IMG/VR virus record: IMGVR_UViG_3300027905_000001
Span: 1-64,000 of that record
Source: a virus
Reading direction: 5' to 3' (one strand)
DNA length: 64,000 bases
The position numbers and the translations under genes were made by a program. Below the pieces are notes generated by a model. That model did no database searches. It was not told the DNA's origin and was given only the letters and a program-made list of their open reading frames with translations. Each line of letters starts with the position of its first letter. Within the stretch, counting starts at the first letter, position 1. Of the stretch, positions 18,021-58,605 are shown in pieces.

Positions 18021-18329
18021 TTAGAGTTGTTTTGCGTCTACCTTCTCCACCCAAACTATATCCCCATTAGCATCGAACTTCAGCTCATCATCATGCCTAG
18101 CTCTAGTTTGTTCGTGGCACTTCCTGCATAGGAGTTCGAGGTTATTCCAGCTATAGCACTTCTCAGGGTTGTTAACGGTGTCCCATGCTGTTATAGGGTC
18201 CTTGTGGTGGACTTCTTCGCCTTTGGATCCGCATTGCTCACAGAGACCGAACTTAGAGGCAAAGAAAGCTTTGCGGCATTTGATCCAGGCGCTTCGTCCG
18301 TAGAATAGTTTGAGTTGGCCTTGACTCAT
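18021..18329 (-). CDS. HNH endonuclease (terminase-associated type)
   Basis: 102 aa; CEQCG...VHHKDP...LELLCRKCHEQ (HNH with zinc-binding Cys pairs). Confidence 0.85.
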   Translation of the reverse strand: MSQGQLKLFYGRSAWIKCRKAFFASKFGLCEQCGSKGEEVHHKDPITAWDTVNNPEKCYSWNNLELLCRKCHEQTRARHDDELKFDANGDIVWVEKVDAKQL

Positions 18330-19230: not shown

Positions 19231-20130
19231 CTAGATACTATCCTCAGCAGCCTTGCGCCGGATCTCTAAGTCAGCCTCATTAACTGCGGTCCTGCGCTCT
19301 GCAAGTTTAAGATTAGCGTCATCAACTTTGCGCCGATGCTGATCCGGAGTGAGGTCAAAGAAGTCCGCCAGCCGGTCAAGTGCCTTATGCTTGTCGTGGA
19401 ACTTAATAGAGATACCATCCTTAGTCTGCCGAATCTCCTGCACCATCGAAGTGTCCACCTGGTCGCTGTTTTTGATCCTAACGAAGTTGACATCCTGCAC
19501 CTGGTACTGACCGTCCGGGCCGACTACGCGCTGGCCGTCGAGATATACCCAATCCTGAGTGGTCCCGAACTCAAAGAAGTCTCCAGGATCGGACATTGCT
19601 ATTTTTTCGTAGACCTCCAGTACATCGCGCTTGGTAAGAAAGATGTCCTGAGCTATATCACCTTTCAGCCGCCGGATCTCTGCCGCAACCTTAACGTCTC
19701 TTAACATCCGGCTGCCCTGGACATGTGCGCCGGCCTTTGGACACCCTGCTTTTATTGCGGCCATCGTTGCGTTGTGATCCTTGACAAAGTGTAGCGCGAA
19801 TAGCTGCTGCTTTTCTGTGAGCGGCGAACTCTCTACTATATAATGCGTCTCGCTCCCGGCTGCTTCTTCCGGCCGTTTCTTTCCCTGGTCCGTTGCCGCT
19901 TTCTTCCGGCCGGACTTCTTGTCCGTTGCAACGCTCTTCTTTTGCGTTGCATTGCGTTGCTTGCCTTGCGTTGCGTTCTGCGTTGCATCGTTGGCCGCTT
20001 CTGCTTTGGCCCAGTTCTCTCTGTTCTTCCGGCTGCGGATCGTGCCCGCGCTGATTCCGTGTTTTGCTGCAAGGTCCCGAAGCGTAATCTCTGTCGTCTC
20101 GTATTCTGCGCGTATTACTAGCCAATCCAT
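19231..20130 (-). CDS. terS: Terminase small subunit
   Basis: N-terminal HTH (ITLRDLAAKHGIS), low-complexity basic linker, conserved LTEKQQLFALHFV...NATMAAIKAG core. Confidence 0.8.
   Translation of the reverse strand: MDWLVIRAEYETTEITLRDLAAKHGISAGTIRSRKNRENWAKAEAANDATQNATQGKQRNATQKKSVATDKKSGRKKAATDQGKKRPEEAAGSETHYIVESSPLTEKQQLFALHFVKDHNATMAAIKAGCPKAGAHVQGSRMLRDVKVAAEIRRLKGDIAQDIFLTKRDVLEVYEKIAMSDPGDFFEFGTTQDWVYLDGQRVVGPDGQYQVQDVNFVRIKNSDQVDTSMVQEIRQTKDGISIKFHDKHKALDRLADFFDLTPDQHRRKVDDANLKLAERRTAVNEADLEIRRKAAEDSI
19928..19994. repeat. Tandem imperfect TTGCGTTGC repeats inside terS (coding for NATQ-type repeats)
   Basis: About seven overlapping copies of GCGTTGC/TTGCG between 19928 and 19994. 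Confidence 0.5.
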
Positions 20131-20173
20131 TTACATTTTCACAACCCTCCCTACATGTTTGCTACTATATATC

Positions 20174-20202
20174 TTGCATATGTCTTGACACCATGATATA
20201 AT
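20174..20202 (+). promoter_or_regulatory. Sigma-A-type promoter for the plus-strand island (TTGCAT-17-TATAAT), overlapping TTGACACCATGATATAA motif
   Basis: -35 TTGCAT 20174-20179, -10 TATAAT 20197-20202; shared motif also present at 21448. Confidence 0.5.
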
Positions 20203-20236
20203 AAGTTAAGATCTAATTTTGAAGGAGGTAAACGGC

Positions 20237-20632
20237 ATGACAAAGCTCGAAATTGCTAAAAACATTAATGCCATCAAGGATTTAGGCCGCATTATTGCAA
20301 CGAATTGGGAGATGGACTTTGTTGAAGGAGGAATCTATGACAATAAGGGCAATGTCGAAAGCTGGACTGACCGTGATAATTCAAAAGTGGCCTTTAAGCC
20401 CGAAAGCACCGGCACGATAACTTATGTCCTTCAATGCAATAAAGTCCCCTGTCACGTAGTAGACTACACTAGCACTGATGAAACTCGCGCCCTTGGCGCT
20501 ACTGGCTGTGAAGATGAAGCTGAATGCCTGGTATTACCTGAAACAAAAATGATAATTACCTACGTTTCCACTGAAGATGATTTCAACGAAATGGGATATT
20601 ACTTAGTGGAAATGGAGATTGTCAATGAGTAA
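20237..20632 (+). CDS. Hypothetical protein (131 aa)
   Basis: GAAGGAGG RBS 8 nt before ATG 20237; no motif recognised. Confidence 0.6.
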   Translation: MTKLEIAKNINAIKDLGRIIATNWEMDFVEGGIYDNKGNVESWTDRDNSKVAFKPESTGTITYVLQCNKVPCHVVDYTSTDETRALGATGCEDEAECLVLPETKMIITYVSTEDDFNEMGYYLVEMEIVNE

Positions 20633-21230
20633 TCGCCATGGACACCCCCTTACTTCTGAACAAAAGGGAGCGAGGGAGATTGAATATCGGAAAATGGCAT
20701 TGGAATTTCATAAAGAAACAGGACGTTCGCCCCGGATGGCAGACTTACCTTTTCCTTATAAAATCTTTAAGGTTCACGACACGTGGAATGCATTTCTTGA
20801 AGATTGCGGGCTAGAGGTTAACCGTTTAACCACGGACGTTGAGAAATATTCTTTAATATTCGATTACAAGGAATTAGCTAAAAACTTAGAACGGACTCCT
20901 TACGCATTAGAATTTTATAAAAAATTTGGTTGCCAATACGCAGTCCGCAAATTATTTGGATCATGGAATGCATTTGTTAAAGCTTGTGATCTTAAATTAA
21001 ATAGATTCACAGGAGCAGAAAAAGAAGAACTTGTGGAACGCGTCTTGAAATTAGCTAAGAAATTAGGTAAAACACCTACAACTCGTGAATTTAATGCACA
21101 CGCAAAGAAAAGTAATCTATGCACGACGATGGTTATATGTCGGTATTTCGGAACATGGACGGAATGCCTTGAGTTTTGCGGGTTAGAGCCTAACCAAAAT
21201 AAAAATTTTAAGCGTAGAAAGAAGGATTAG
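20619..21230 (+). CDS. Protein with three tandem ~55-aa repeats (tentatively homing-endonuclease-associated HTH-like repeat)
   Basis: Repeats ending WNAFLEDCGLE / WNAFVKACDLK / WTECLEFCGLE. Confidence 0.55.
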   Translation: MSMSNRHGHPLTSEQKGAREIEYRKMALEFHKETGRSPRMADLPFPYKIFKVHDTWNAFLEDCGLEVNRLTTDVEKYSLIFDYKELAKNLERTPYALEFYKKFGCQYAVRKLFGSWNAFVKACDLKLNRFTGAEKEELVERVLKLAKKLGKTPTTREFNAHAKKSNLCTTMVICRYFGTWTECLEFCGLEPNQNKNFKRRKKD

Positions 21231-21232
21231 CG

Positions 21233-21397
21233 ATGGCAGAAACAACAACCGACGACCGCGAACGCATGACACTACGCATCCCCCAGGACATTTGGCGCAT
21301 GATCAAAATGGACCTGATTGACAAAAAAGAAAAGTCGGCCAATGAGCTTATCACAAACTTAATATATGAGCACTACAAAGTACCCCGGCCGCAATAG
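21233..21397 (+). CDS. Ribbon-helix-helix (CopG/Arc-like) DNA-binding protein, 54 aa
   Basis: Not in ORF track (under 60 aa); MAETTTDDRERMTLRIPQDIWRMIKMDLIDKK...; GAAGGA RBS; start overlaps upstream stop. Confidence 0.55.
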   Translation: MAETTTDDRERMTLRIPQDIWRMIKMDLIDKKEKSANELITNLIYEHYKVPRPQ

Positions 21398-21447
21398 CTG
21401 GGGGTTTTCTTTACCTAAAAATACTTAATATTTATTGTCTTAATGCC

Positions 21448-21476
21448 TTGACACCACGACATAAAAGATGTATTAT
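21448..21476 (+). promoter_or_regulatory. Sigma-A-type promoter (TTGACA-17-TATTAT) with long GC-rich leader
   Basis: -35 TTGACA 21448-21453, -10 TATTAT 21471-21476; shares CTTGACACCAYGAYATAA with the 20185 region. Confidence 0.55.
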
Positions 21477-21648
21477 TAACACATGGAAAACAGCACTCCA
21501 GCCCAATCCAGTGCAACAAACGCTTCCCCCGGCCAATTGCGGTCCGGGTCCGCCAAGAAGCCGAGAGAGAAAAGTTGACCGTGTGTCAGGGAAGAAGATT
21601 AATCCCGACAGGCTACAAAGGGAGCCGGGGAAAAAGGAGTTTTAAATT

Positions 21649-21858
21649 ATGAAACAAACTTATTACAGCGTTGGTTATTACTCAGGAAGATCGAACAGCA
21701 CTAGCACGGCGTTTTTTGATACTAAAGAGGCGGCTGAAAAATTTGCAGATCATGATTACAGGGATAACGTGGTAGCGCATCACGTGAGCAAGCCTGAGAC
21801 GATTGCGAAATACGATGAGCTAGTTGCTATGACGGCGTTTGAGCTTAGAGACCGTTAG
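21649..21858 (+). CDS. Hypothetical protein (69 aa)
   Basis: AAAAAGGAG RBS then ATG; no motif. Confidence 0.55.
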   Translation: MKQTYYSVGYYSGRSNSTSTAFFDTKEAAEKFADHDYRDNVVAHHVSKPETIAKYDELVAMTAFELRDR

Positions 21859-21971
21859 GATTTGCAGATGGCACCGGCCAGCACCCGGTGTAATGCACTA
21901 GCAGGCGTCCAAAGTCGCCGCAAATGCATCCCGACAGCTCGCAAGGAACGGGGAAAAGGAGGTCAGGACAG

Positions 21972-22418
21972 ATGCTCTATCACAGATTTACTAACTCATC
22001 AAACGTAATGTCCAACTGGGGTCACGCAATGTTTGCGGCCAACAGGGACGCGGTCGAAAATTACGGTAGTAAAGAGTTTATCTTTAAATCATCTAGGGAC
22101 AATAGCAAAACGATCAAGTCGCTCAAATCACTGATTATCAAAACTTGGAAGTACGATCAAAAAAATGGCTTTACCGGGGACTTTGGCAACGGCTGCACAG
22201 ATGATTACTACTACAACGTCAAGGATAATGCAGTGGACGCTATTAGTATTTACAACAGCTTTGACCCGTCTAGCGTTGTGGAGAGCGCCGATGCTTGGGA
22301 CTCCGAGCTTTATCAATGGTTTTGGGAGCGTATCGCGGAGCCTAACGGCATTATGGCAGTTACAACTCAAGATGGGGCAATAGTATTTGATGCAGACTTA
22401 ATTAAGGAGGTATGTTAA
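21972..22418 (+). CDS. Hypothetical protein (148 aa; track start 21924)
   Basis: GGAAAAGGAGG RBS before ATG 21972. Confidence 0.55.
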   Translation: MLYHRFTNSSNVMSNWGHAMFAANRDAVENYGSKEFIFKSSRDNSKTIKSLKSLIIKTWKYDQKNGFTGDFGNGCTDDYYYNVKDNAVDAISIYNSFDPSSVVESADAWDSELYQWFWERIAEPNGIMAVTTQDGAIVFDADLIKEVC

Positions 22419-22679
22419 ATGTCTAATGAGGATGACGTTATGTTTTTCAAAATAGCAAAGGTTAAAGCCGCTATCAGCAGGGTCCTAGACGGGTGCGTAA
22501 ACGAGTTGCCGGATATCCAGTTTGGATGGAGCGGATCAGTTATCGAGGTTTATTTATCCGGCGGTAATTATCAAGTCCGCAACCTTATCGAGTCCCATTT
22601 TGTAAATAGCAGGAGGTATAAAGGCGTTACAATTACAAACAACGACACCAAAAAGCGTATCAGCTTTATTTTAAATTAA
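22419..22679 (+). CDS. Hypothetical protein (86 aa)
   Basis: AAGGAGG RBS, start abuts upstream stop. Confidence 0.55.
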   Translation: MSNEDDVMFFKIAKVKAAISRVLDGCVNELPDIQFGWSGSVIEVYLSGGNYQVRNLIESHFVNSRRYKGVTITNNDTKKRISFILN

Positions 22680-22700
22680 GAAATTGAAGGAGTGTTAAAA

Positions 22701-22919
22701 ATGAAACGATTAGACATTTTTAAAAGCGAAGGTGGATACAGATTAGCATTGGGAATCTACAACGACAGCCCCGTAATTGACAAGTCTCCTTGGTTCGAAA
22801 CCAAGGAAGAGGCCGAAAAAGCAAGGCGCGAAGTCATAGAAGAAGATGAGCGAGAAGCCAAAATTGAGCAGTATATCCAAGATGGCAATATCGAGGCCCT
22901 CGAAAACATGGATAAGTAA
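22701..22919 (+). CDS. Hypothetical protein (72 aa; track start 22692 GTG)
   Basis: GAAGGAG RBS before ATG 22701; acidic C-terminus. Confidence 0.5.
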   Translation: MKRLDIFKSEGGYRLALGIYNDSPVIDKSPWFETKEEAEKARREVIEEDEREAKIEQYIQDGNIEALENMDK

Positions 22920-23013
22920 TTGCAGAGGATTAGGAGCCTAAAAACTCCTAATAATGCGCTAGGCAAGCGGTTCCAAGCCCGCGCCAATCGCAATTTTGAA
23001 AGGTGGAGCAATC

Positions 23014-23250
23014 ATGAAATACACCATAGCTGAATACCACGGCATAGACCGGCACCAAATGCAAGCCCATACCGAGGAAATCATTACCAAGCTTGAATTT
23101 ATTCGAACAACATGCACGGATGCCGAATCGCTCGAATACACTGACGCCCAACTCGAATTTTACCGCGAAGAACTAGCCAGTAAATCCCTGCTTATGTCAT
23201 CATGGTGGGAAGTTGAGAACTACATGCGGAAAGGTAGGAAAATAGCATGA
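23014..23250 (+). CDS. Hypothetical protein (78 aa)
   Basis: AGGTGGAG RBS before ATG 23014. Confidence 0.5.
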   Translation: MKYTIAEYHGIDRHQMQAHTEEIITKLEFIRTTCTDAESLEYTDAQLEFYREELASKSLLMSSWWEVENYMRKGRKIA

Positions 23251-23438
23251 CCATCTACATCCATGAGTTTTACAAGGACAAGGAAAAGGCGCTCGCATTG
23301 GCTGAACTACCGGACGAACTAGATTATCACCGATTTGTCCACGGCTGTGAGCCTAAAAAGGTGAACATAGTCCCTTATTGGGCAGATTGCGACAAGTACA
23401 AGGCGAATAAGTCCACCATGACACTGTTTATTAGCTAA
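23247..23438 (+). CDS. Hypothetical protein (63 aa)
   Basis: Start overlaps upstream stop (ATGA). Confidence 0.45.
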   Translation: MTIYIHEFYKDKEKALALAELPDELDYHRFVHGCEPKKVNIVPYWADCDKYKANKSTMTLFIS

Positions 23439-23518
23439 CATCAAGGCTTTTAGCCTTGGCTCAGCCGCTTTTTGAGCGGTTCAGCGAGGACTAAAAACGA
23501 ATGAAAGAGGTAATTTAC

Positions 23519-24439
23519 ATGAGCATGATCAACGAACAACTAGCCCAACGATCAAAGGAAAACATGAGTTTTTCCGACTACAAACCCGGCAGCGCAACGG
23601 CTGAATTCAACCAGGAAATAGCCAACGTCACCACGTTAGTTGAATCGGCCAAGCTCAGGGTATCCGACGAAGGGAAAGCCAAGCTAGATCGTTTCCTAGC
23701 CTCTTACACCTCTCGTTATGCCGCATGGACCAATAAGCGCAACGCAAATGGTGCAGGACATGTTAGTGTTATGATCGCAGGCCCAGCTAACTACAACATG
23801 AGAGCGCACGAAAAGTACATGAGCCGTGAAGGTAATCTCTGGAAAGAATACGAGGAATTCCGAAACCCTGAGTATAAAATTTCCTCCATCGTCGCAGGTG
23901 ACAGAGTTATAAAATCCAATGATGTCAACGCTATTGAAAAATTGCAGGAGAAAATAGACGGACTTGAAAAAATGCAGGAATTAATGAAAGCTTGTAACGC
24001 CATCATCCGTAAAAAGAAGCTGACCGACGAAGAGAAGATTGCTGCAATGGTAGAAGCTGGAGCCAGCGAAAAAGCCGCAAAAGAAACCTTGACCCCTAAT
24101 TTTATGGGCAGAATAGGTTTTGCCTCTTATTCGCTCAGTAATAACAACGCAACGATCCGAAACGCCAAGCAACGAATATCCCAGCTTGAGAAGATCGCTG
24201 CACGCGGCACGCAAGAGACTGTCATAGAATCAGACGCGGAGGAAACAAACGGCATACGCATAGTTGACAATGTTGAAGCGCATCGGCTGCAAATATTCTT
24301 TAATGGCAAGCCATCGGCAGAAGTTCGAACACAGTTAAAGAAAAATGGATTTAGGTGGACGCCTAGTATTTCCGCGTGGCAGTCGTATCGAAGTGAGAGC
24401 GCAAACCGGGCAGCGCGTGAAATAGTGGCAGCAATGTAA
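23519..24439 (+). CDS. Hypothetical protein (306 aa) with conserved-looking C-terminal RLQIFFNGKPS...GFRWTPSISAWQSY module
   Basis: AAAGAGG RBS before ATG 23519; C-terminal motif resembles small domains seen in phage/conjugative-element proteins (tentative). Confidence 0.5.
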   Translation: MSMINEQLAQRSKENMSFSDYKPGSATAEFNQEIANVTTLVESAKLRVSDEGKAKLDRFLASYTSRYAAWTNKRNANGAGHVSVMIAGPANYNMRAHEKYMSREGNLWKEYEEFRNPEYKISSIVAGDRVIKSNDVNAIEKLQEKIDGLEKMQELMKACNAIIRKKKLTDEEKIAAMVEAGASEKAAKETLTPNFMGRIGFASYSLSNNNATIRNAKQRISQLEKIAARGTQETVIESDAEETNGIRIVDNVEAHRLQIFFNGKPSAEVRTQLKKNGFRWTPSISAWQSYRSESANRAAREIVAAM

Positions 24440-24523
24440 TTATATCGCGGGACCATCTTTGGCCCTGCTCCAAATGTCCGATTATGGGCACTTGGAGGAG
24501 AATCAAAATTTAGAGGTGATCAA

Positions 24524-24712
24524 GTGGCGGAAACGTGGTTCTCTCGACTTAAAACAGAGATAGAAGATTCGAGAGACTTGCAAGAAATTCTTGGTGTTAA
24601 AGTTATCGAGCATCTTTTGTGGAACAATATCTCTCGCGAACAATACGAAACTCTCTCTAGCCTGCGCGTAAAAAGAATCCTGGAAAATTGGCACGAAGAA
24701 TTTTTGGCTTAA
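24524..24712 (+). CDS. Hypothetical protein (62 aa)
   Basis: Short ORF with GGAGGAG upstream. Confidence 0.4.
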   Translation: MAETWFSRLKTEIEDSRDLQEILGVKVIEHLLWNNISREQYETLSSLRVKRILENWHEEFLA

Positions 24713-24767
24713 ATCCACGCCGGACTATTCCGGTTTTTTCCCAACTAAAATTAAGGAGGAATAACTT

Positions 24768-25382
24768 ATGTTTCATGCGTTCACGCTCGAACAAGCGAAC
24801 CTCAGAGAGGTCCAAGGTTGGAAGGTCGGCCAACATGTCCAAGTCAAAGAATGGCGTGGTACTTACGAAATCGAAGGCTACCACCAATACGGAAGGCAAA
24901 ACGAGTACACCACTGTATACCTTGCCAAGCTCAAGAAAGACGGTACTAAGAGCAAATACAGCGGCGATACACCTATCGCTAACCTCATGCCATTGGGAGC
25001 GGCACAACCAACAACAGACAGCGCAGGACGAACAGCACTGCAGGCGGCACAGGAGCTATTCGGTAGCGGCTTTGCTAAACACGGATGGTATAACACGGAT
25101 CGCGAATCACTGGTAAAGGTTGAGACGATCAGTAAGACAGGACGCGTCAAGGTGCAAGATATAAGCGTCAAGGCTGGAATTACGGCACGTTCAAAGACTG
25201 TAGATGGACATAAAGTTTACAGTCAAGAAGATCGCCTGGTAAACTTTGCGGATCTCGAATACGGTCTAAGTGGAGATATAAAAACATTCACGCCGCGCCT
25301 TTTTTGGGGTGAATGGGGCTTTTGGCATGATGGGGAAATTATCAAGGCCCCAGATATGAAGCTTACGTGGTTGCTAGATTAA
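24768..25382 (+). CDS. Hypothetical protein (204 aa)
   Basis: AAGGAGG RBS; last gene of the island, followed by terminator. Confidence 0.55.
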   Translation: MFHAFTLEQANLREVQGWKVGQHVQVKEWRGTYEIEGYHQYGRQNEYTTVYLAKLKKDGTKSKYSGDTPIANLMPLGAAQPTTDSAGRTALQAAQELFGSGFAKHGWYNTDRESLVKVETISKTGRVKVQDISVKAGITARSKTVDGHKVYSQEDRLVNFADLEYGLSGDIKTFTPRLFWGEWGFWHDGEIIKAPDMKLTWLLD

Positions 25383-25392
25383 CATAATTTAA

Positions 25393-25416
25393 AGCCGGAC
25401 ATCATCCGGCTTTTTG
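25393..25416. terminator. Rho-independent terminator closing the plus-strand island
   Basis: AGCCGGA ... TCCGGCT stem followed by TTTTT. Confidence 0.65.
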
Positions 25417-25439
25417 GCGTTCCCGTTATTATCTTTCCG

Positions 25440-25835
25440 GCTCCATAGGCTTATACGCCACCCTAGCCCATGCAAGCCCTAGAACGCCGTATAAGCCCCC
25501 ATAATCTCCGTGTGGTCACTATGCAACCTATCGTTATCCAAGGCCCTTATATACCGTTCTGTGTCCTATCATATCGCAAGCCCTACAAGACGTTTTAAGC
25601 CCTCGAAATATCAAAGGCATAACTATGTCAATCCCTAACTATTCAACGCCATACAGGTGCCATTCTGCGCCTGTGATAACGCTCTGCGCCTATGTGCCGA
25701 TACCCTAACGACGGCGGCAAAACGTCCTCTAATTACCTCAATTTGTCGCCTATTGTCGAAGTTCGCCTGATTTCACCCTGATTTTATGACCATATTTCGA
25801 CATTCCCAAAATTCTCTCGACATTCCCAAAATATC
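25440..25835. repeat. Repeat-dense non-coding region (iteron-like direct repeats)
   Basis: Seven or more AAGCCCT-type motifs (including GCAAGCCCTAGAACG / GCAAGCCCTACAAGAC), TCTGCGCCTRTG x2, TCGACATTCCCAAAAT x2. Confidence 0.6.
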
Positions 25836-25893
25836 GGTTTCTTGTAATTTTTATAAAATCGCTCCACCGAAAAAATATCCCCAGCTTGTAAAA

Positions 25894-26133
25894 TTATTCG
25901 TCCTCGAATCGACAACCGCGGTTACTCTTCATCATCCGATCTCTTGCCATAAACGCCATACTGTTCTCGAACTCTTCCCATTTTCGAGCTGTCTCGTATC
26001 GCTTGTATGCACTTAGGTATTCGTCGCAATATGAAGCAGGAACATTGGCGCAGCTAGAACAACTAGAACTAGAGCGTCCTATATCGCGATATATTCGGGG
26101 TTTGTAGCATCTGCATCGAGGCGGTTCTCTCAC
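25894..26133 (-). CDS. Small Cys-rich protein (79 aa), GTG start
   Basis: TAAGGAGGG RBS 8 nt before GTG 26133; CRCYKPRIY...CSSC...C. Confidence 0.45.
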   Translation of the reverse strand: MREPPRCRCYKPRIYRDIGRSSSSCSSCANVPASYCDEYLSAYKRYETARKWEEFENSMAFMARDRMMKSNRGCRFEDE

Positions 26134-26257
26134 TAGTTGCTCCCTCCTTAATCCATAGGCAATGGTCAACGTCATACTTCCTGCATAAGGCGCAGTTGGT
26201 TCGTTCAAGGCTTTTGTCTATTGCGCTGAATTCTTTGCAGCTTCTGTTCTCTCCCAT
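26069..26257 (-). CDS. Small Cys-containing protein (62 aa), overlapping the downstream ORF
   Basis: GAGGG RBS before ATG 26257; CKEF...CALC...HC. Confidence 0.4.
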   Translation of the reverse strand: MGENRSCKEFSAIDKSLERTNCALCRKYDVDHCLWIKEGATSERTASMQMLQTPNISRYRTL

Positions 26258-26293: not shown

Positions 26294-26429
26294 ATTAAAG
26301 CATGCTTTTTTAGTTTGAATTAAAGCATGCTTTTTTGGTTTTTGTTTATGTAATTAAGGCATGCTTTTTCTATGTCTGAAATTAAGGCGTGCTTTTATGT
26401 ACCACCATCAAGATTAAGGCATGCTTTTT
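26294..26429. repeat. Five tandem copies of palindrome-containing site ATTAARGCRTGCTTTT (candidate protein-binding array)
   Basis: Copies start at 26294, 26319, 26353, 26381, 26413; each contains AAGCATGCTT-like palindrome. Confidence 0.7.
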
Positions 26430-26703: not shown

Positions 26704-27276
26704 CTATACGTATTTACTAAAATAAAGGTATCTTTGAAATAATGGCCCTAATATCTCCCACAATACTTCAAGCGCTTCTCTGTTAATCTTCCTTAACATT
26801 TCGTTTGTGATATAAACTCTACCAACAGAATGGCGCTCGTTAAACACAATCTCAATGTTCCTCCATGTCATGACTTCAAAGTATTTAGACCTAATAACGG
26901 TTTCCTGTTCCCTCGTTAATGCCTTCAGCGCTTCATCAATCTGCTCCATCTCAAGCGTCTTAAACCTCATCTTCGACCGATCCTCGTCAATCCAAGCCTC
27001 AACTAATTCCCTCGTAACCTCTCTGCGCCCTGCTATATGCTCGGTCGGCGAAGTTGTAGTTGTTGCGTGCGGCATACCGATAATTCTACTTACGCTGTTC
27101 TCGAATAACCATAGCTCTCCCGCGCTCAATGCTTGTTCCCATACCAGGATTCTCTGCATAGTTGTCACGACTTCTGCTTTATGTTTTTTATAGAGTTTCA
27201 AGCGTTCTTCGAGTATGTTTTGGGATTCTTTTATCATTGCTATGGTTATTACCTCCTCTCTACCGTTTTGCGCCAT
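26704..27276 (-). CDS. Sigma-70 region-4-like late transcription regulator (ArpU/RinA-like, tentative)
   Basis: C-terminal LTREQETVIRSKYFEVMTWRNIEIVFN...VGRVYITNEMLRKI resembles region 4 HTH; sits before the packaging module. Confidence 0.5.
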   Translation of the reverse strand: MAQNGREEVITIAMIKESQNILEERLKLYKKHKAEVVTTMQRILVWEQALSAGELWLFENSVSRIIGMPHATTTTSPTEHIAGRREVTRELVEAWIDEDRSKMRFKTLEMEQIDEALKALTREQETVIRSKYFEVMTWRNIEIVFNERHSVGRVYITNEMLRKINREALEVLWEILGPLFQRYLYFSKYV

Positions 27277-52985: not shown

Positions 52986-53345
52986 ATGGAAATGAGGAAA
53001 ATATTTATGATTATCGGTATGGGCAGTAGAATTAGAGTTCTTCGACTTGAACGAGGGTTAACACAGGACCAAATGGCATATAAACTGGACATGAATCGTG
53101 CGAATTTCTCACATTACGAAAGAGACACATCTTCCCCACCGTGCGAAGTTCTGGTCAAAATAGCTGATATTTTAAATACAACTACAGATTTCCTTCTTGG
53201 ACGCACAGATACTAATCCACCCGATGCTGCAACAATCAAACAACTACAAGGAATTAATGAATTACCGCAAGACAAGAGAAGATTTGTAATAAATATAATA
53301 AATTCGATTATTTCAGAAATAATCGAAGAGGCTAAGGAGGAATAG
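52986..53345 (+). CDS. CI-like XRE-family repressor (probable start at ATG 53007)
   Basis: N-terminal HTH (LERGLTQDQMAYKLDMNRANFSHYE); start of integrase gene follows immediately. Confidence 0.7.
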   Translation: MEMRKIFMIIGMGSRIRVLRLERGLTQDQMAYKLDMNRANFSHYERDTSSPPCEVLVKIADILNTTTDFLLGRTDTNPPDAATIKQLQGINELPQDKRRFVINIINSIISEIIEEAKEE

Positions 53346-53347
53346 GT

Positions 53348-54826
53348 ATGCATGGAATACTATACCTGCGCAAAAGCAGAGAAGATGAGCAATATGAAAA
53401 AAATACTGGCGAAGATGTTCTGCAAACCCATCGCGAACGTTTGGTTATGCTCTGTAAGTCGCGGGAAATTACCTTCGACGAACGCGCAGAGGTACGAAGC
53501 GGTGATACGATCGCAGGTCGGCCTAAATTTCAGAATATACTAGATACGGATCTCCCCTCTGGTCAATACTCTTGTATCATTGTTACTGAAATTTCTCGAC
53601 TTGGCAGAGGGGACATGGAGGATGCAGGAAGAATATACAAAACCATAATCCACAACGAGATTAAGATTGTCACGCCGAATAAAATATATGATCCGTTAAA
53701 CCCTTCCGATCTTCGCCAGCTAAGGTTCGAGCTATTCATGTCTCGGGAGGAATACGAAAGCATTAAGGAAAGACTATGGAATAATAGAAATTACCGGGCA
53801 ACACAAGGTTATGCCGGCAATTATATTGTCACGCTCGGTTTTCGCCAGTCCAGGGGGATAGTCGAGATAATCCCCGAAGAGGAAAAATTAGTGCTTGAAA
53901 TATTTACGATGCGCTCTGAAAATTACTCCTATCAAGAAATAGCGGATTACTTTAATTCCAGAAATTTAAAGACAAAACGCGGAACAAAGTATCATGAATC
54001 TACAATATATAAGATATTAAAAAATCCCAGGTATATAGGAGTGGCTAAGTGGCAAGGCAAGGAATATATAGCTAAGCACCCTGCGATAGTCTCATTGGAC
54101 CTATGGAACTCTGCGCAGGATATCAACGCTGAAAGACATCACAAGAGACGAGGGTCAAAAAACGATAACCCTTATCTAGTAGAGCTATACTGTCGAGAAT
54201 GCGGGCAAAGGATGTACGGGGAACGCTCTACCCCGCAAAGGGTAATAGATGGTGTTCGAAAGCTATATAAAAGCAGAGACATCTATATTTGTAGGGGCAG
54301 AAAAAGCATCCCTAAATGTTGGCACCACATAGGAGCCAGCGTTGTTCACTCGACCATCCTTGATGAGCTTGGGAAGATAATATCAGATCCGCAGATTTTT
54401 CTTGAGTTAGTCAACGAGAGAGAATCAAGACTTGGCGTCGATACTAATGGTTTATCAGATCAAGTGGATGAATTAAATAAGCAAGTCAAGGATAAAAACA
54501 TCCTTTTGGTAAAAATAGAGAACGATTATGAAAAAGGCGACCTATCCGCTTTGCTATATACTAAACACGTTGAAAAAATATCCAAAGAAATAGCATCTAT
54601 TGAAGGTAGGATAAAAAAAATTAAGGCCGATTTATTAAAATCAGCCATTAAGATTAGTCCTCCTATGGAATTACAATCAATTTTGAAAACATTCCTAAAT
54701 AACTGGAACGCCTATCCTAATAGTGACAAGAAGCTCATCATTAGATCATTTCTTCCCAGGGTTGAGGTGAACAAGCAGGGTGAATTCTTTATCGCTATTA
54801 CTTTGCCTGATTCTATCGAAATTTAG
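53348..54826 (+). CDS. Large serine recombinase (prophage integrase)
   Basis: 492 aa; N-terminal resolvase-type catalytic region (YLRKSRED), recombinase domain, Cys-containing zinc ribbon, coiled-coil C-terminus. Confidence 0.85.
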   Translation: MHGILYLRKSREDEQYEKNTGEDVLQTHRERLVMLCKSREITFDERAEVRSGDTIAGRPKFQNILDTDLPSGQYSCIIVTEISRLGRGDMEDAGRIYKTIIHNEIKIVTPNKIYDPLNPSDLRQLRFELFMSREEYESIKERLWNNRNYRATQGYAGNYIVTLGFRQSRGIVEIIPEEEKLVLEIFTMRSENYSYQEIADYFNSRNLKTKRGTKYHESTIYKILKNPRYIGVAKWQGKEYIAKHPAIVSLDLWNSAQDINAERHHKRRGSKNDNPYLVELYCRECGQRMYGERSTPQRVIDGVRKLYKSRDIYICRGRKSIPKCWHHIGASVVHSTILDELGKIISDPQIFLELVNERESRLGVDTNGLSDQVDELNKQVKDKNILLVKIENDYEKGDLSALLYTKHVEKISKEIASIEGRIKKIKADLLKSAIKISPPMELQSILKTFLNNWNAYPNSDKKLIIRSFLPRVEVNKQGEFFIAITLPDSIEI

Positions 54827-56299: not shown

Positions 56300-56527
56300 A
56301 TGGACATAACTAAAATCCAAAAAATCGTTCGCAAGGCTATCAAGGACTACGCCATTACCGCAAAGTACGATGAGGAAATTCTAGTATCATTTCTCAGCGT
56401 GGATATTTTCCGGGAGATCAACGAGGATTCCCCGGCACCTCTCTCGGATCCCAAGGCTCCCCCTCGCCGCAATACTAACCAGAATGCATTAGGTCTGGTA
56501 AATCACGAAGCAGGTGAAACGCCATGA
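56300..56527 (+). CDS. Hypothetical small protein (75 aa; track start 56261)
   Basis: GGAAGTGAGG RBS before ATG 56300; 3' end overlaps next gene (ATGA). Confidence 0.4.
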   Translation: MDITKIQKIVRKAIKDYAITAKYDEEILVSFLSVDIFREINEDSPAPLSDPKAPPRRNTNQNALGLVNHEAGETP

Positions 56528-57852
56528 GTGAAAAATCATCGTCCGTAAAGCCCGACCTGATCGGCTTGACATCCTCTACTCTGGTCAAACTTGGACGCTT
56601 TGCCCTACGTCATATCGGCAGTCCCAACAACTCCTATGCGAACAAGATAATGCTGAACTGGAAACGCAATGACATATGCACCGAAACCAAAGAGCGAGGC
56701 AAGGATTACACAGAGAAGAAATACCCTACGCTAGTGGAAAAGACAATGAAGGGTCATAATCGAGTACTTAGATACAAGATACCCACCGGTCTAAATCCGC
56801 AGAAAGTCATGAAATCCCTCTACGACATCGAGTTCGATCTCAAGTCAGAAGTCCTATTCAAGCGACTTGAGAACGATCCCAAAGCGCACTTCTCACTCAC
56901 TATCTTATCCGGCAAACTGTTAGACATTATCAACTACTCCAACGAGGCCAGTATTACTCCAGATGGCAAGGAGTTAAGCAAAGGTCTATGGATACCTCTA
57001 GGGTGGTCAAGAAGGGGCTTGGAACAACTTAATTTAGCCTCTAGCAACAGCCCTCATCTTATGATCGGAGGGGCTACAGGAGGCGGCAAGAGCATCCTTG
57101 GCAGGCTTATCCTTGCTACCCTCCATATCCGCTATAACCGTGATGAATGCCGACTATGGCTCTGTGACCTTAAACATGGCAACGGCACAGCAAGGCTAGG
57201 GAAAAACCCTCTCCTTGTAGATAGGACTATTTCTGATCCGGGCGAAGCAGAACAAATGATGGACGATCTCTCTGTGATTATTGGCGAGCGATATAATTTA
57301 TTTAAGGAGTATGAGTGCGACGATTTACAGGCGTTTAACGAGGAATATCCAAGATTGAGATTGCCGCGCATTGTGGTTTATGTGGATGAATTAACCAAAC
57401 TTGAGGGCAAGGAGTTCTCCAGGGCTCGTGAAAAGATGACTAAAGTCACGGGGGAATCCAGGGGTGCAGGAGTGCATGTTATTATCTCTTGTCACAGGCC
57501 CACAGCTAACCTTGTGTCCGGCACGATGAAGAACAATATCTCTGCCGTTGTCGCGTTTAATTGCAACGCTGTATCGGCTCGTGTGTTGCTTGGAGAAGAT
57601 CCGGAGGATTACAAGGCAGCCAGCATGATTGATCCAGATATCGAAGGTCGAGCATTGTTTAAATTTAAAGATGAGGTATTGCTGCAGGTCCCCTACATCG
57701 ACAACCATGCAATCAAGTCCCTTATGGCCAACTATCAAAAAGCGATAATTAAAGGTAAGGTCGAGCCAGTGATACAGGCTGTTATTTCCACTAGGGTGGT
57801 TGAGCACTCAGTCGGGCACTCACTCGGTCATACTATTGAGCACCCCCAGTGA
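56524..57852 (+). CDS. FtsK/SpoIIIE-family DNA translocase-like ATPase
   Basis: 442 aa; Walker A GGATGGGKS, Walker B-like VVYVDEL. Confidence 0.75.
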   Translation: MSEKSSSVKPDLIGLTSSTLVKLGRFALRHIGSPNNSYANKIMLNWKRNDICTETKERGKDYTEKKYPTLVEKTMKGHNRVLRYKIPTGLNPQKVMKSLYDIEFDLKSEVLFKRLENDPKAHFSLTILSGKLLDIINYSNEASITPDGKELSKGLWIPLGWSRRGLEQLNLASSNSPHLMIGGATGGGKSILGRLILATLHIRYNRDECRLWLCDLKHGNGTARLGKNPLLVDRTISDPGEAEQMMDDLSVIIGERYNLFKEYECDDLQAFNEEYPRLRLPRIVVYVDELTKLEGKEFSRAREKMTKVTGESRGAGVHVIISCHRPTANLVSGTMKNNISAVVAFNCNAVSARVLLGEDPEDYKAASMIDPDIEGRALFKFKDEVLLQVPYIDNHAIKSLMANYQKAIIKGKVEPVIQAVISTRVVEHSVGHSLGHTIEHPQ

Positions 57853-57966
57853 TTGTACTCAACGATTCAATGCGCTTTATAGGCTCCTTTGGTCATGCCG
57901 TGCGGTCCGTAAAGTGCTTTATTATCCTTACTTTTTTATTTTGTATTTATTTTATATTTTTGCGAG

Positions 57967-58605
57967 GTGAAAATTGTGAACTTAGTGGCATATGGCAAGC
58001 AACGAGACGAACGAATTATGGGGCTAGTAGGGCTTGGGACAGCCTTTACGCGAAGCCAAATAGAGCGAGTTATATTTAAGGGAAGTAAGCGTAAGGCTCA
58101 GACTAGACTGCAGGTGCTATCCGATTCAGGGCGACTAAAAAAGATTATCCGCAGTCCCCACGAACCAGCCATCTATTGCCTCAAAAAACCCCGAAATATC
58201 GATCATTATTTACTTATCAATGAAATCTATTGTGCCGTAATGTCTCAGAAAAAGTCTTGGCATATCGTCAAGTGGCAATGGTCATATCCAATTATGGAAG
58301 GTAAGATTTGGGCAGACGCAATGGTTGATATTTACGACCAACTCAATAAGCGTAGGCATGTTATATTTGTTGAGGTTGAGCGTTACGCAGACCGTAAGTT
58401 CGAGAAGGATAAAAAGTATTCAGCCATTACCAGCGCGAACTGGACGAAAGAAGAGTGGGCGATTAAGGAGCCTACAAGGATATTGTTCCCGGCAATCCTA
58501 GTTGTCACCGAATGCAAATTAGAGGTCAAAAGCGAGTTGGATTTCTTTGTTGCCACGATGGACCAAGTCAAAAAAGACATTTACTCTATTATCTTAAGGA
58601 GGTAA
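57967..58605 (+). CDS. Replication-relaxation-family-like protein (winged-helix N-terminus), tentative
   Basis: 212 aa; N-terminal LVGLGTAFTRSQIERVIF...RLQVLSDSGRLKKI; central VIFVEVERY. Confidence 0.45.
   Translation: MKIVNLVAYGKQRDERIMGLVGLGTAFTRSQIERVIFKGSKRKAQTRLQVLSDSGRLKKIIRSPHEPAIYCLKKPRNIDHYLLINEIYCAVMSQKKSWHIVKWQWSYPIMEGKIWADAMVDIYDQLNKRRHVIFVEVERYADRKFEKDKKYSAITSANWTKEEWAIKEPTRILFPAILVVTECKLEVKSELDFFVATMDQVKKDIYSIILRR

Follow-up and report, generated by a model that had tools for sequence, protein, structure and literature searches.

Two predicted twister ribozymes in a mosaic accessory gene island of a Firmicute prophage

In prophages, hammerhead ribozymes flank genes singly or in short blocks, and their proposed role is the cutting of long transcripts into gene-length mRNAs (Perreault et al. 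2011, PMC3088659). The genes flanked in this way include the anti-restriction gene ardA (PMC3088659). The gene associations that twister, pistol, and related ribozyme classes have in common still lack an explanation (PMC6765202, PMC4604425), and processing of polycistronic prophage RNA by ribozymes has been proposed in print (PMC3088659; PMC6765202). Here, we describe a locus of this kind in a 64,000-nucleotide stretch of viral DNA (positions 1 to 64,000 of IMG/VR record IMGVR_UViG_3300027905_000001, hereafter the window), in which a block of twelve small genes, g01 to g12, lies between a late-regulator-like gene and terS and contains two predicted twister ribozymes. The two twisters place this island in an already described genomic-context class, and it exemplifies the "ribozyme-associated gene" neighbourhood of the literature (PMC3088659, PMC6765202, PMC4604425). 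As in other loci of this class, several ribozymes flank genes or short blocks in a polycistronic prophage region, and differing ribozyme classes together with RAGATH RNAs are found in equivalent places of related loci. The window island differs by an identified anchor, a divergent DUF3560 protein, by a bracketed cassette that opens with a predicted AcrIF11-like ADP-ribosyltransferase (ART) fold gene, and by at least two free-standing modules of polyvalent proteins.

The anti-CRISPR protein AcrIF11 (PDB 6KYF, 8DWQ) is an ADP-ribosyltransferase that modifies Cas8f in an NAD+-dependent manner, with catalytic residues given as H-F-H-D, or as H/Y plus D-E (PMC12421852). The product of g05 resembles it as a small (about 140-170 amino acids, aa), phage- or plasmid-borne protein with a predicted single-domain ART fold, and it has an invariant His near the N-terminus and conserved Asp residues near the C-terminus. 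It differs from AcrIF11 by the lack of detectable sequence similarity, by its Firmicute host, and by a family that is also found inside polyvalent proteins. The domains of g05 and g10 resemble those of polyvalent proteins (Iyer et al. 2017, PMC5512222) in that they occur inside giant proteins with LPD38, PBECR5, or YodL, and solo versions of some polyvalent-protein domains often occur in phages (PMC5512222). The window modules differ from these in being separate small genes of an operon, divided by ribozymes and not by a processing protease; the text of PMC5512222, as far as it is searchable, names neither domain. The ribozymes of the window add to a known class, and their context, too, is of a known kind. 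New as far as can be checked are the DUF3560-like anchor, the AcrIF11-like cassette, and the composition of an island of this type from polyvalent modules; some of this may already be contained in published gene-class lists.

The reading we favour, with a probability of about 0.55, is that the block is a mosaic counter-defence or host-takeover island of a prophage of Candidatus Desulfosporosinus infrequens and that its ribozymes cut the operon RNA into separate mRNAs. A counter-defence function is suggested because of the AcrIF11-like fold predicted for g05, the polyvalent-protein provenance of g05 and g10, and the mosaicism of the block; we would give it roughly even odds against a toxin or defence function and an unknown other function combined. 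An earlier note on this DNA had regarded the block as a moron or an anti-defence or defence island. What it observed was confirmed, its interpretation is partly supported, and the two ribozymes had been missed.

Twister ribozymes of the island

Both ribozymes match the type P5 twister model of Rfam (RF02684, gathering score 37.6 bits) along its entire length (positions 1-58 of 58) and lie on the plus strand. Ribozyme 1 (21863-21919, 39.7 bits) starts 4 nt past the stop codon of g04, and ribozyme 2 (22921-22982, 44.1 bits) starts 1 nt past that of g07. They are the sole Rfam matches at gathering level in the window, with none in the other ~58.7 kb, and no other Rfam RNAs were found in the gaps of the second operon (E <= 10, 21400-25500) or in the whole island (E <= 1). 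Cleavage is predicted at U21891/A21892 and U22952/A22953, sites placed from the known twister architecture, 5' of the conserved A in P1-U^AA-P2. These sites enclose a segment of 1061 nt with the genes g05, g06, and g07.

The assignment of these elements as twister ribozymes is well supported by sequence and covariation. In agreement with type P5, both copies are full-length and have P1, P2, and P4, a covarying pseudoknot, and an intact core, in which GCAGA, UAAUGC, and the loop AAG are preserved, likewise in all five twisters compared. The P5 stem comprises just 3-4 A-U pairs. Ribozyme 1 differs from the type by its variant P4 loop UCCAAAGU, which is accompanied by compensating partner changes. 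Where the two copies diverge in P1, P4, and the pseudoknot, the changes compensate each other. In an alignment of four sequences, comprising the two window twisters and homologues from the related loci L007 and L023, standard pairs make up 94.5% of the cells, against 25-42% in slid controls, and 12 of 19 pairs are altered on both sides; no shuffle reached the observed value. Such double-sided changes affect 6 of 7 pairs in P1 and 3 of 4 in P4, while P2 is invariant. The 3-bp pseudoknot (alignment columns 7-9 with 56-58) is 100% paired with two of its three pairs doubly changed, namely UGG:CCA in ribozyme 1 and GGA:UCC in the other three. A second tertiary pair of 2 bp covaries as well (AC:GU vs GC:GC) and is 71% paired in this alignment, but its register is ambiguous in L007 and L023.

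Scores only 2-6.5 bits above the gathering threshold, the off-consensus P4 loop of ribozyme 1, and the fact that many predicted ribozymes do not cleave on testing (PMC8782182) could indicate that the twister matches are decayed or inactive relics without a role and that the island is a simple polycistronic moron operon. We consider this unlikely because the departures of ribozyme 1 are matched by compensating changes on either side of the pseudoknot, and likewise of the second tertiary pair, and because the three core motifs are retained in both copies. Moreover, the placement in the intergenic gaps is precise and is the same as that of four other ribozyme classes in homologous islands.

A different fate of the RNA would result if the twisters excised the 1061-nt g05-g07 segment and if RtcB or a ribozyme-templated ligation then sealed its ends, which would give a circular mRNA resistant to exonucleases. 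The segment is indeed flanked by ribozymes of the same class on the same strand, which would leave exactly the ends for RtcB, and circular or spliced products have been considered for tandem prophage hammerheads; however, Perreault et al. sought such products and detected none (PMC3088659). In addition, a chimera of the 5' half of ribozyme 2 and the 3' half of ribozyme 1 retains one of the three pseudoknot pairs, and circularisation through a chimeric twister is disfavoured because the two copies do not cross-pair. A single ribozyme is also frequent in related islands (L007, L014, L020), and a circular mRNA appears highly improbable.

The genes g04 and g07, each located directly upstream of a twister, share the motif F-[DE]-T-K-E-x-A-E-K, which reads FFDTKEAAEKF in g04 (21700-21740) and WFETKEEAEKA in g07 (22790-22830) and has no family match.

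Cargo genes and related islands

The gene g05 (21972-22418, plus strand) encodes a protein of 148 aa, and the start codon of g06 (22419-22679, plus strand, 86 aa) abuts its stop codon. In the structural model of g05 (pLDDT 88.6, pTM 0.84), the nearest structure is AcrIF11 by two methods, with 6kyf as top match in Foldseek (E 1.8e-3, probability 1.00, TM 0.56/0.59), and the protein is on this basis predicted to have an ADP-ribosyltransferase fold. The claim of the earlier note that the proteins of the block have no recognisable catalytic motifs is therefore probably wrong for g05. A profile of 23 homologues retrieved no AcrIF11 chain from the PDB at E <= 10. In the alignment of the g05 family, which has 23 members at 90% clustering, H18, D110, and D140 are invariant and D134 is nearly so. 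A search with the g05 profile against 1.84 billion representatives yielded 427 relatives, many of them internal domains of proteins of 1000-3700 aa, and LPD38 or PBECR5 was found in three of five tested large proteins holding the g05 domain.

The gene g06 co-occurs with g05 in the loci L087-L093, with 79-81% identity in six of them and 53% in L089. In close homologues, the g05-g06 pair is located directly behind its own promoter, TTGACA-17-TACGAT/TACAAT, and has no ribozyme; in the window, a twister stands in the place of this promoter. An association of ribozymes with g05 as such was considered and rejected, as there are no Rfam ribozymes in 13 loci of the g05 family (90 kb).

The gene g10 (23519-24439, plus strand) encodes a divergent DUF3560-like protein of 306 aa, whose large family has 894 matches. 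Its C-terminal GFRW...AWQ domain, which had been pointed out before as a module, is real and conserved, with G277, F278, W280, W287, and Q288 invariant in 27 homologues. DUF3560 (PF12083) scores 13.2 bits with the window protein (E 0.099), below the gathering score of 27.2 bits, while 16 of the 27 homologues match at E <= 0.01 (best 7.3e-6) and plasmid homologues are annotated as DUF3560; g10 is therefore a distant relative and not a scored member. Matches to g10 occur in 453 plasmid records, of which 252 are conjugative. In Enterococcus plasmid pMG2200, the g10 domain forms the C-terminal part of a 1306-aa YodL-domain protein that is encoded beside topoisomerase III. The structural model of g10 (pLDDT 85) has no significant match in the PDB, and a resemblance of its C-terminus to the MotA DNA-binding domain was weak and unreliable (E 0.25).

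Through phrog_19458 (E 6e-68), g10 bears the label of a primase, as do its homologues in phages Maintenon and FP_Toutatis. The homologue of Clostridium phage Maintenon lies between a sigma factor and terS and shares the strand of its neighbours; the placement between late regulator and terS is common to this phage and the window. These findings would fit a core phage programme with g10 as primase or replication factor and the small genes as ordinary early or late genes. Nevertheless, g10 contains no primase, Toprim, AEP, or zinc-finger domain according to Pfam and NCBIfam and matches no primase structure, and the label comes solely by transfer from PHROG. As the g10 family is also far commoner on conjugative plasmids, where it is fused to YodL, and as all neighbours of g10 are mosaic, there is very little reason to regard the block as part of the core programme.

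The mosaicism became apparent from about 90 viral, plasmid, and genomic loci encoding relatives of g10 or g05. In related phages, g10 and the late regulator alone retain their placement relative to each other, which agrees with the view of the earlier note that the block is autonomous and accessory, while the other genes are exchanged: g03 recurs in one relative (L001) and g12 in three (L003, L099, L102), L102 having a g12 homologue adjoining that of g10 and L003 carrying both, and g05-g06 recur in several relatives without g10 nearby. Since these genes are exchanged independently, the block is a mosaic hot spot of cassettes and not one co-inherited system, with g10 as the conserved anchor of equivalent islands that are otherwise mosaic. 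The suggestion that the block might be an undescribed system is thus not supported, as it consists of independently exchanged cassettes.

Among 40 loci of the g10 family scanned with Rfam, the window included, self-cleaving ribozymes were found in eight, two of which (L062 and L063) are near-identical. Two type P5 twisters are present in the window, one each in L007 and L020, one together with a pistol ribozyme in L023, a hammerhead III in L014, and twister-sister, hammerhead II, and RAGATH-5 in L062, L063, and L068. Thus, the recurring classes are twister, twister-sister, pistol, and hammerhead (II, III), in addition to RAGATH-5. All 23 ribozyme or RAGATH-5 matches are on the strand of the g10 homologue and in short intergenic gaps, where most start 0-15 nt past a stop codon and end about 25-45 nt ahead of the next start codon.

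Arrays of five or six ribozyme-type RNAs within about 4 kb are present on one strand around a distant g10 homologue in L063 (4308-8322), L062 (1456-5470), and L068 (4654-8150), which are metagenomic viral contigs of IMG data set 3300045988. In three relatives, the 3' end of this oppositely oriented island carries a gene for a tyrosine recombinase of ~297 aa with a Phage_integrase and a SAM-like domain (L001, 7061-7951; L007, 8963-9856; L102, 9943-10836); the window phage has none at this position. Outside the island, an int-alpA RNA (RF02996) is located in L023 (2923-2990, minus strand) and a Tad2-like protein (PF11195) is encoded in L102 (57-509, minus strand).

Both the stop-to-start adjacency and co-inheritance of g05 and g06 and the presence of this recombinase in the same block of relatives, as in lysogeny modules, would be compatible with a moron expressed in the lysogen as a defence or addiction module. 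According to this explanation, g05 and g06 would be an ADP-ribosylating toxin and its antitoxin or immunity partner, the lysogen would be protected by abortive infection or the prophage stabilised, and the ribozymes would tune the ratio of toxin to antitoxin. Host-type promoters directed away from the lytic genes (see below) would also fit. On the other hand, a search of PADLOC-DB 2.0 with ten island proteins (all but g03 and g11) gave no matches at E <= 0.01, and the top structural match of the g05 model is an anti-CRISPR protein and not a toxin. The g05 domain is found within polyvalent proteins with the phage-type hallmarks LPD38 and PBECR5 (PMC5512222), which points to offence and not to host defence, and the Maintenon homologue of g10 is co-directional with lytic genes. 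We therefore regard a defence or addiction module as possible and rather doubtful. The classification as an anti-defence or defence island in the earlier note receives indirect support from the predicted fold of g05 and the polyvalent modules g05 and g10, but not from matches to known defence genes.

Gene content and transcription signals

The block consists of 12 plus-strand open reading frames (ORFs) at 20219-25382 within positions 20131-25420, and the neighbouring genes on both sides are on the minus strand. On one side, these are terS for the small terminase subunit (19231-20130; PF03592, E 6e-34), followed downstream by the large terminase and more large minus-strand ORFs, and on the other the late-regulator-like gene (26704-27276), which matches phage transcriptional-regulator families (phrog_36, E 5e-9; weakly DUF722). 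The sign of both GC skew and AT skew reverses across the block. The ORFs appear to be genuine genes: with a codon-usage model trained on the long genes of the window, all 12 score positive in their own frame and negative in the other five, and a Shine-Dalgarno-like site of the GGAGG type precedes each of them. Gene starts were adjusted to these ribosome-binding sites.

In addition to g05, g06, and g10, the plus-strand genes are g01 (20237-20632; 131 aa from the ATG at 20237 in an ORF that opens at TTG 20219; match to phrog_32996), g02 (20619-21230; about 201-203 aa), g03 (21233-21397; 54 aa, an Arc-like candidate repressor of the ribbon-helix-helix, RHH, type), g04 (21649-21858; 69 aa), g07 (22701-22919; 72 aa), g08 (23014-23250; 78 aa), g09 (23247-23438; 63 aa), g11 (24524-24712; 62 aa with a GTG start and the lowest coding score of the 12 ORFs), and g12 (24768-25382; 204 aa, from a small family of 17 hypothetical proteins). 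The repeats of g02 had been described as HTH-like; there are three of them in tandem, and they are identified as copies of the HNH_repeat PF18780 ("homing endonuclease associated repeat", E 5.7e-28) without a nuclease domain, so that g02 is likely a DNA-binding protein. Searches of NCBIfam with g01-g10 and sequence searches of the PDB with g01, g06, g10, and g12 gave no matches.

Near-consensus promoters with a shared sequence are present, as had been reported. The promoter region P1 (20174-20212, plus strand) contains TTGCAT(20174)-17-TGaTATAAT(20202) with an extended -10 box, which overlaps with a second promoter, TTGACA(20185)-16-TAAGAT, and P2 (21447-21476, plus strand) has the sequence TTGACA(21448)-17-TATTAT(21476). 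Both have the 18-mer CTTGACACCAYGAYATAA in common (20184-20201 and 21447-21464), which occurs exactly twice in 64 kb with 0.2 occurrences expected, and the similarity extends beyond it to 39 nt at 72%. A general promoter scan showed no enrichment (16 found vs 14.9 expected from shuffles), so that the case for these promoters is based on quality, position, and the shared element and not on counts. An intrinsic terminator at 21383-21413 (hairpin 21383-21403, plus strand) with the g03 stop codon in its loop, which the earlier note had not listed, divides the block into two operons, g01-g03 and g04-g12. The terminator that closes the second operon and the island, recognised before as a clean one, is located at 25391-25418; its 10-bp GC-rich hairpin (25391-25413, fold z -3.2) is followed by a T run and, with runs on both sides, would act bidirectionally.

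The shared, partly symmetric element TGyCTTGA-CA-CCAyGAyA lies over the -35 box and fits a candidate operator for g03. In L001, the g03 homologue (69% identity) is directly followed by ATATGTCTTGACATCAAGACA, which contains the perfect 8-bp dyad TGTCTTGA-CA-TCAAGACA. In acr-aca operons, an anti-CRISPR gene is combined with an autorepressor. The island resembles them by strong, constitutive-type promoters, the gene for a small putative DNA-binding protein, and the operator-like element over the promoter; it differs in that the candidate repressor is tentatively of the RHH type and is encoded in another operon than the ART gene. Promoter-like hexamers of terS on the minus strand (20164-20243) are positioned back to back over P1, with GTGTCA as the reverse of the shared TTGACAC, and a factor that binds the shared element could consequently also affect terS transcription.

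Further elements are found on the plus strand between the genes of the second operon. Its leader of 170 nt (21477-21648) has no Rfam family and folds no better than shuffles (z -0.65). The 10-mer ATCCCGACAG is common to the leaders of g04 (21603-21640) and g05 (21927-21962) and is followed by a similar G-rich stretch into the ribosome-binding site; as a meaningful shared leader element it was rejected because it is compatible with chance, and a duplicated leader may be an alternative. Two adjacent hairpins before g10 (23442-23485, fold z -2.2) have no T run and are not conserved, the regions upstream of g10 homologues being unrelated to each other. The spacer at 24440-24523 is structured (fold z -2.0) and has no match to a known family, and a short hairpin with T6 at 24719-24740 may be a weak internal terminator or attenuator before g12. 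No convincing terminal inverted repeats of an invertible or mobile segment were found at the block.

Beside the island terminator, about 470 nt (25420-25890) are without a convincing ORF and contain a long imperfect hairpin (25448-25497) and two tandem copies of TCGACATTCCCAAAAT (about 25797-25835); this is the island end at which relatives have the tyrosine recombinase gene. Five direct copies of ATTAARGCRTGCTTTT, with none expected by chance, are present at 26294-26428 with a spacing of 25-34 nt, between a small Cys-rich minus-strand ORF (25894-26208) and the late-regulator-like gene. The copies may serve as binding sites of the late regulator or as a packaging signal. Between terS and terL lies a gene for an HNH endonuclease (PF01844, E 1.7e-7; 18021-18329, minus strand), which is kept apart from both by genes without known function.

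The g10 protein is identical to one recorded from Candidatus Desulfosporosinus infrequens on a 123.5-kb contig, and the window has a lysogeny module at 52986-54826 with a cI-like HTH gene and a gene for a large serine recombinase of 492 aa. The virus is therefore a Firmicute prophage. FtsK/SpoIIIE and Replic_Relax genes at 56524-58605 suggest a second mobile element or a prophage boundary. No similarity at the DNA level to GenBank phages was found.

Proposed expression and meaning of the island

According to the favoured reading as a counter-defence or host-takeover island, the two operons would be transcribed against the lytic genes from host-type promoters, and the g03 RHH protein would repress P1 and P2 via the shared element over the -35 box. 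The RNA of the second operon (g04-g12, about 3.9 kb) would be cut during synthesis at 21891/21892 and 22952/22953, yielding three RNAs, one with g04, the 1061-nt g05-g07 segment, and one with g08-g12. Upstream pieces would close with the P1 hairpin and carry a terminal 2',3'-cyclic phosphate, and downstream pieces would begin with a 5'-OH, the P4 hairpin, and a leader of their own of about 60-80 nt, so that each cassette would have its own RNA ends, its own stability, and its own setting for translation. The g05-g06 pair of other phages would gain the same independence through its own promoter. The g05 protein would act as an ADP-ribosyltransferase like AcrIF11, partnered by g06, and g10 would be a DUF3560-type module like those fused into plasmid polyvalent proteins. 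The cargo would most likely serve counter-defence or host takeover.

Several points weigh against this reading. The operator copies of the window are symmetric at just 5-6 of 8 positions, and the RHH assignment of g03, which the earlier note had made, is only tentatively retained, with a match to an Arc-like PHROG (E 0.0022) and none in Pfam. No function can be assigned to 10 of the 12 island proteins. Known ribozymes are lacking in 32 of the 40 related islands, and ribozymes are therefore optional. An unmasking of ribosome-binding sites by cleavage was considered and rejected, as their accessibility predicted in silico shows no consistent change upon cleavage. Finally, RNase J1 can degrade 5'-OH products in Firmicutes, as it does that of glmS in Bacillus (PMC6765202), and cleavage could therefore lower and not protect downstream expression.

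In a more general and clearly speculative form, the ribozyme-rich neighbourhoods described from 2011 to 2015 onwards would be counter-defence islands of phages and conjugative elements that are built from free-standing polyvalent modules, such as the DUF3560-like g10 and the AcrIF11-like g05, with ribozymes of any class as insulators just past each stop codon. If this were true, a newly recombined cassette would acquire RNA ends of its own and its expression would not depend on its neighbours, which would explain why unrelated ribozyme classes have the same gene associations.

Why unrelated ribozyme classes gather near the same phage genes is a question over a decade old (PMC6765202), and this locus makes it more testable without answering it. 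It is a compact test case with two twisters at defined positions and a bracketed cassette with a plausible enzymatic anti-defence gene, and relatives in which a promoter takes the place of the ribozyme before the same cassette provide natural controls. With the DUF3560-like anchor family, many islands of this kind can be gathered. Should the cargo prove to serve counter-defence, the ribozymes would be a search handle for new anti-defence genes, and the g05 family would be a new group of ADP-ribosyltransferases in Firmicutes.

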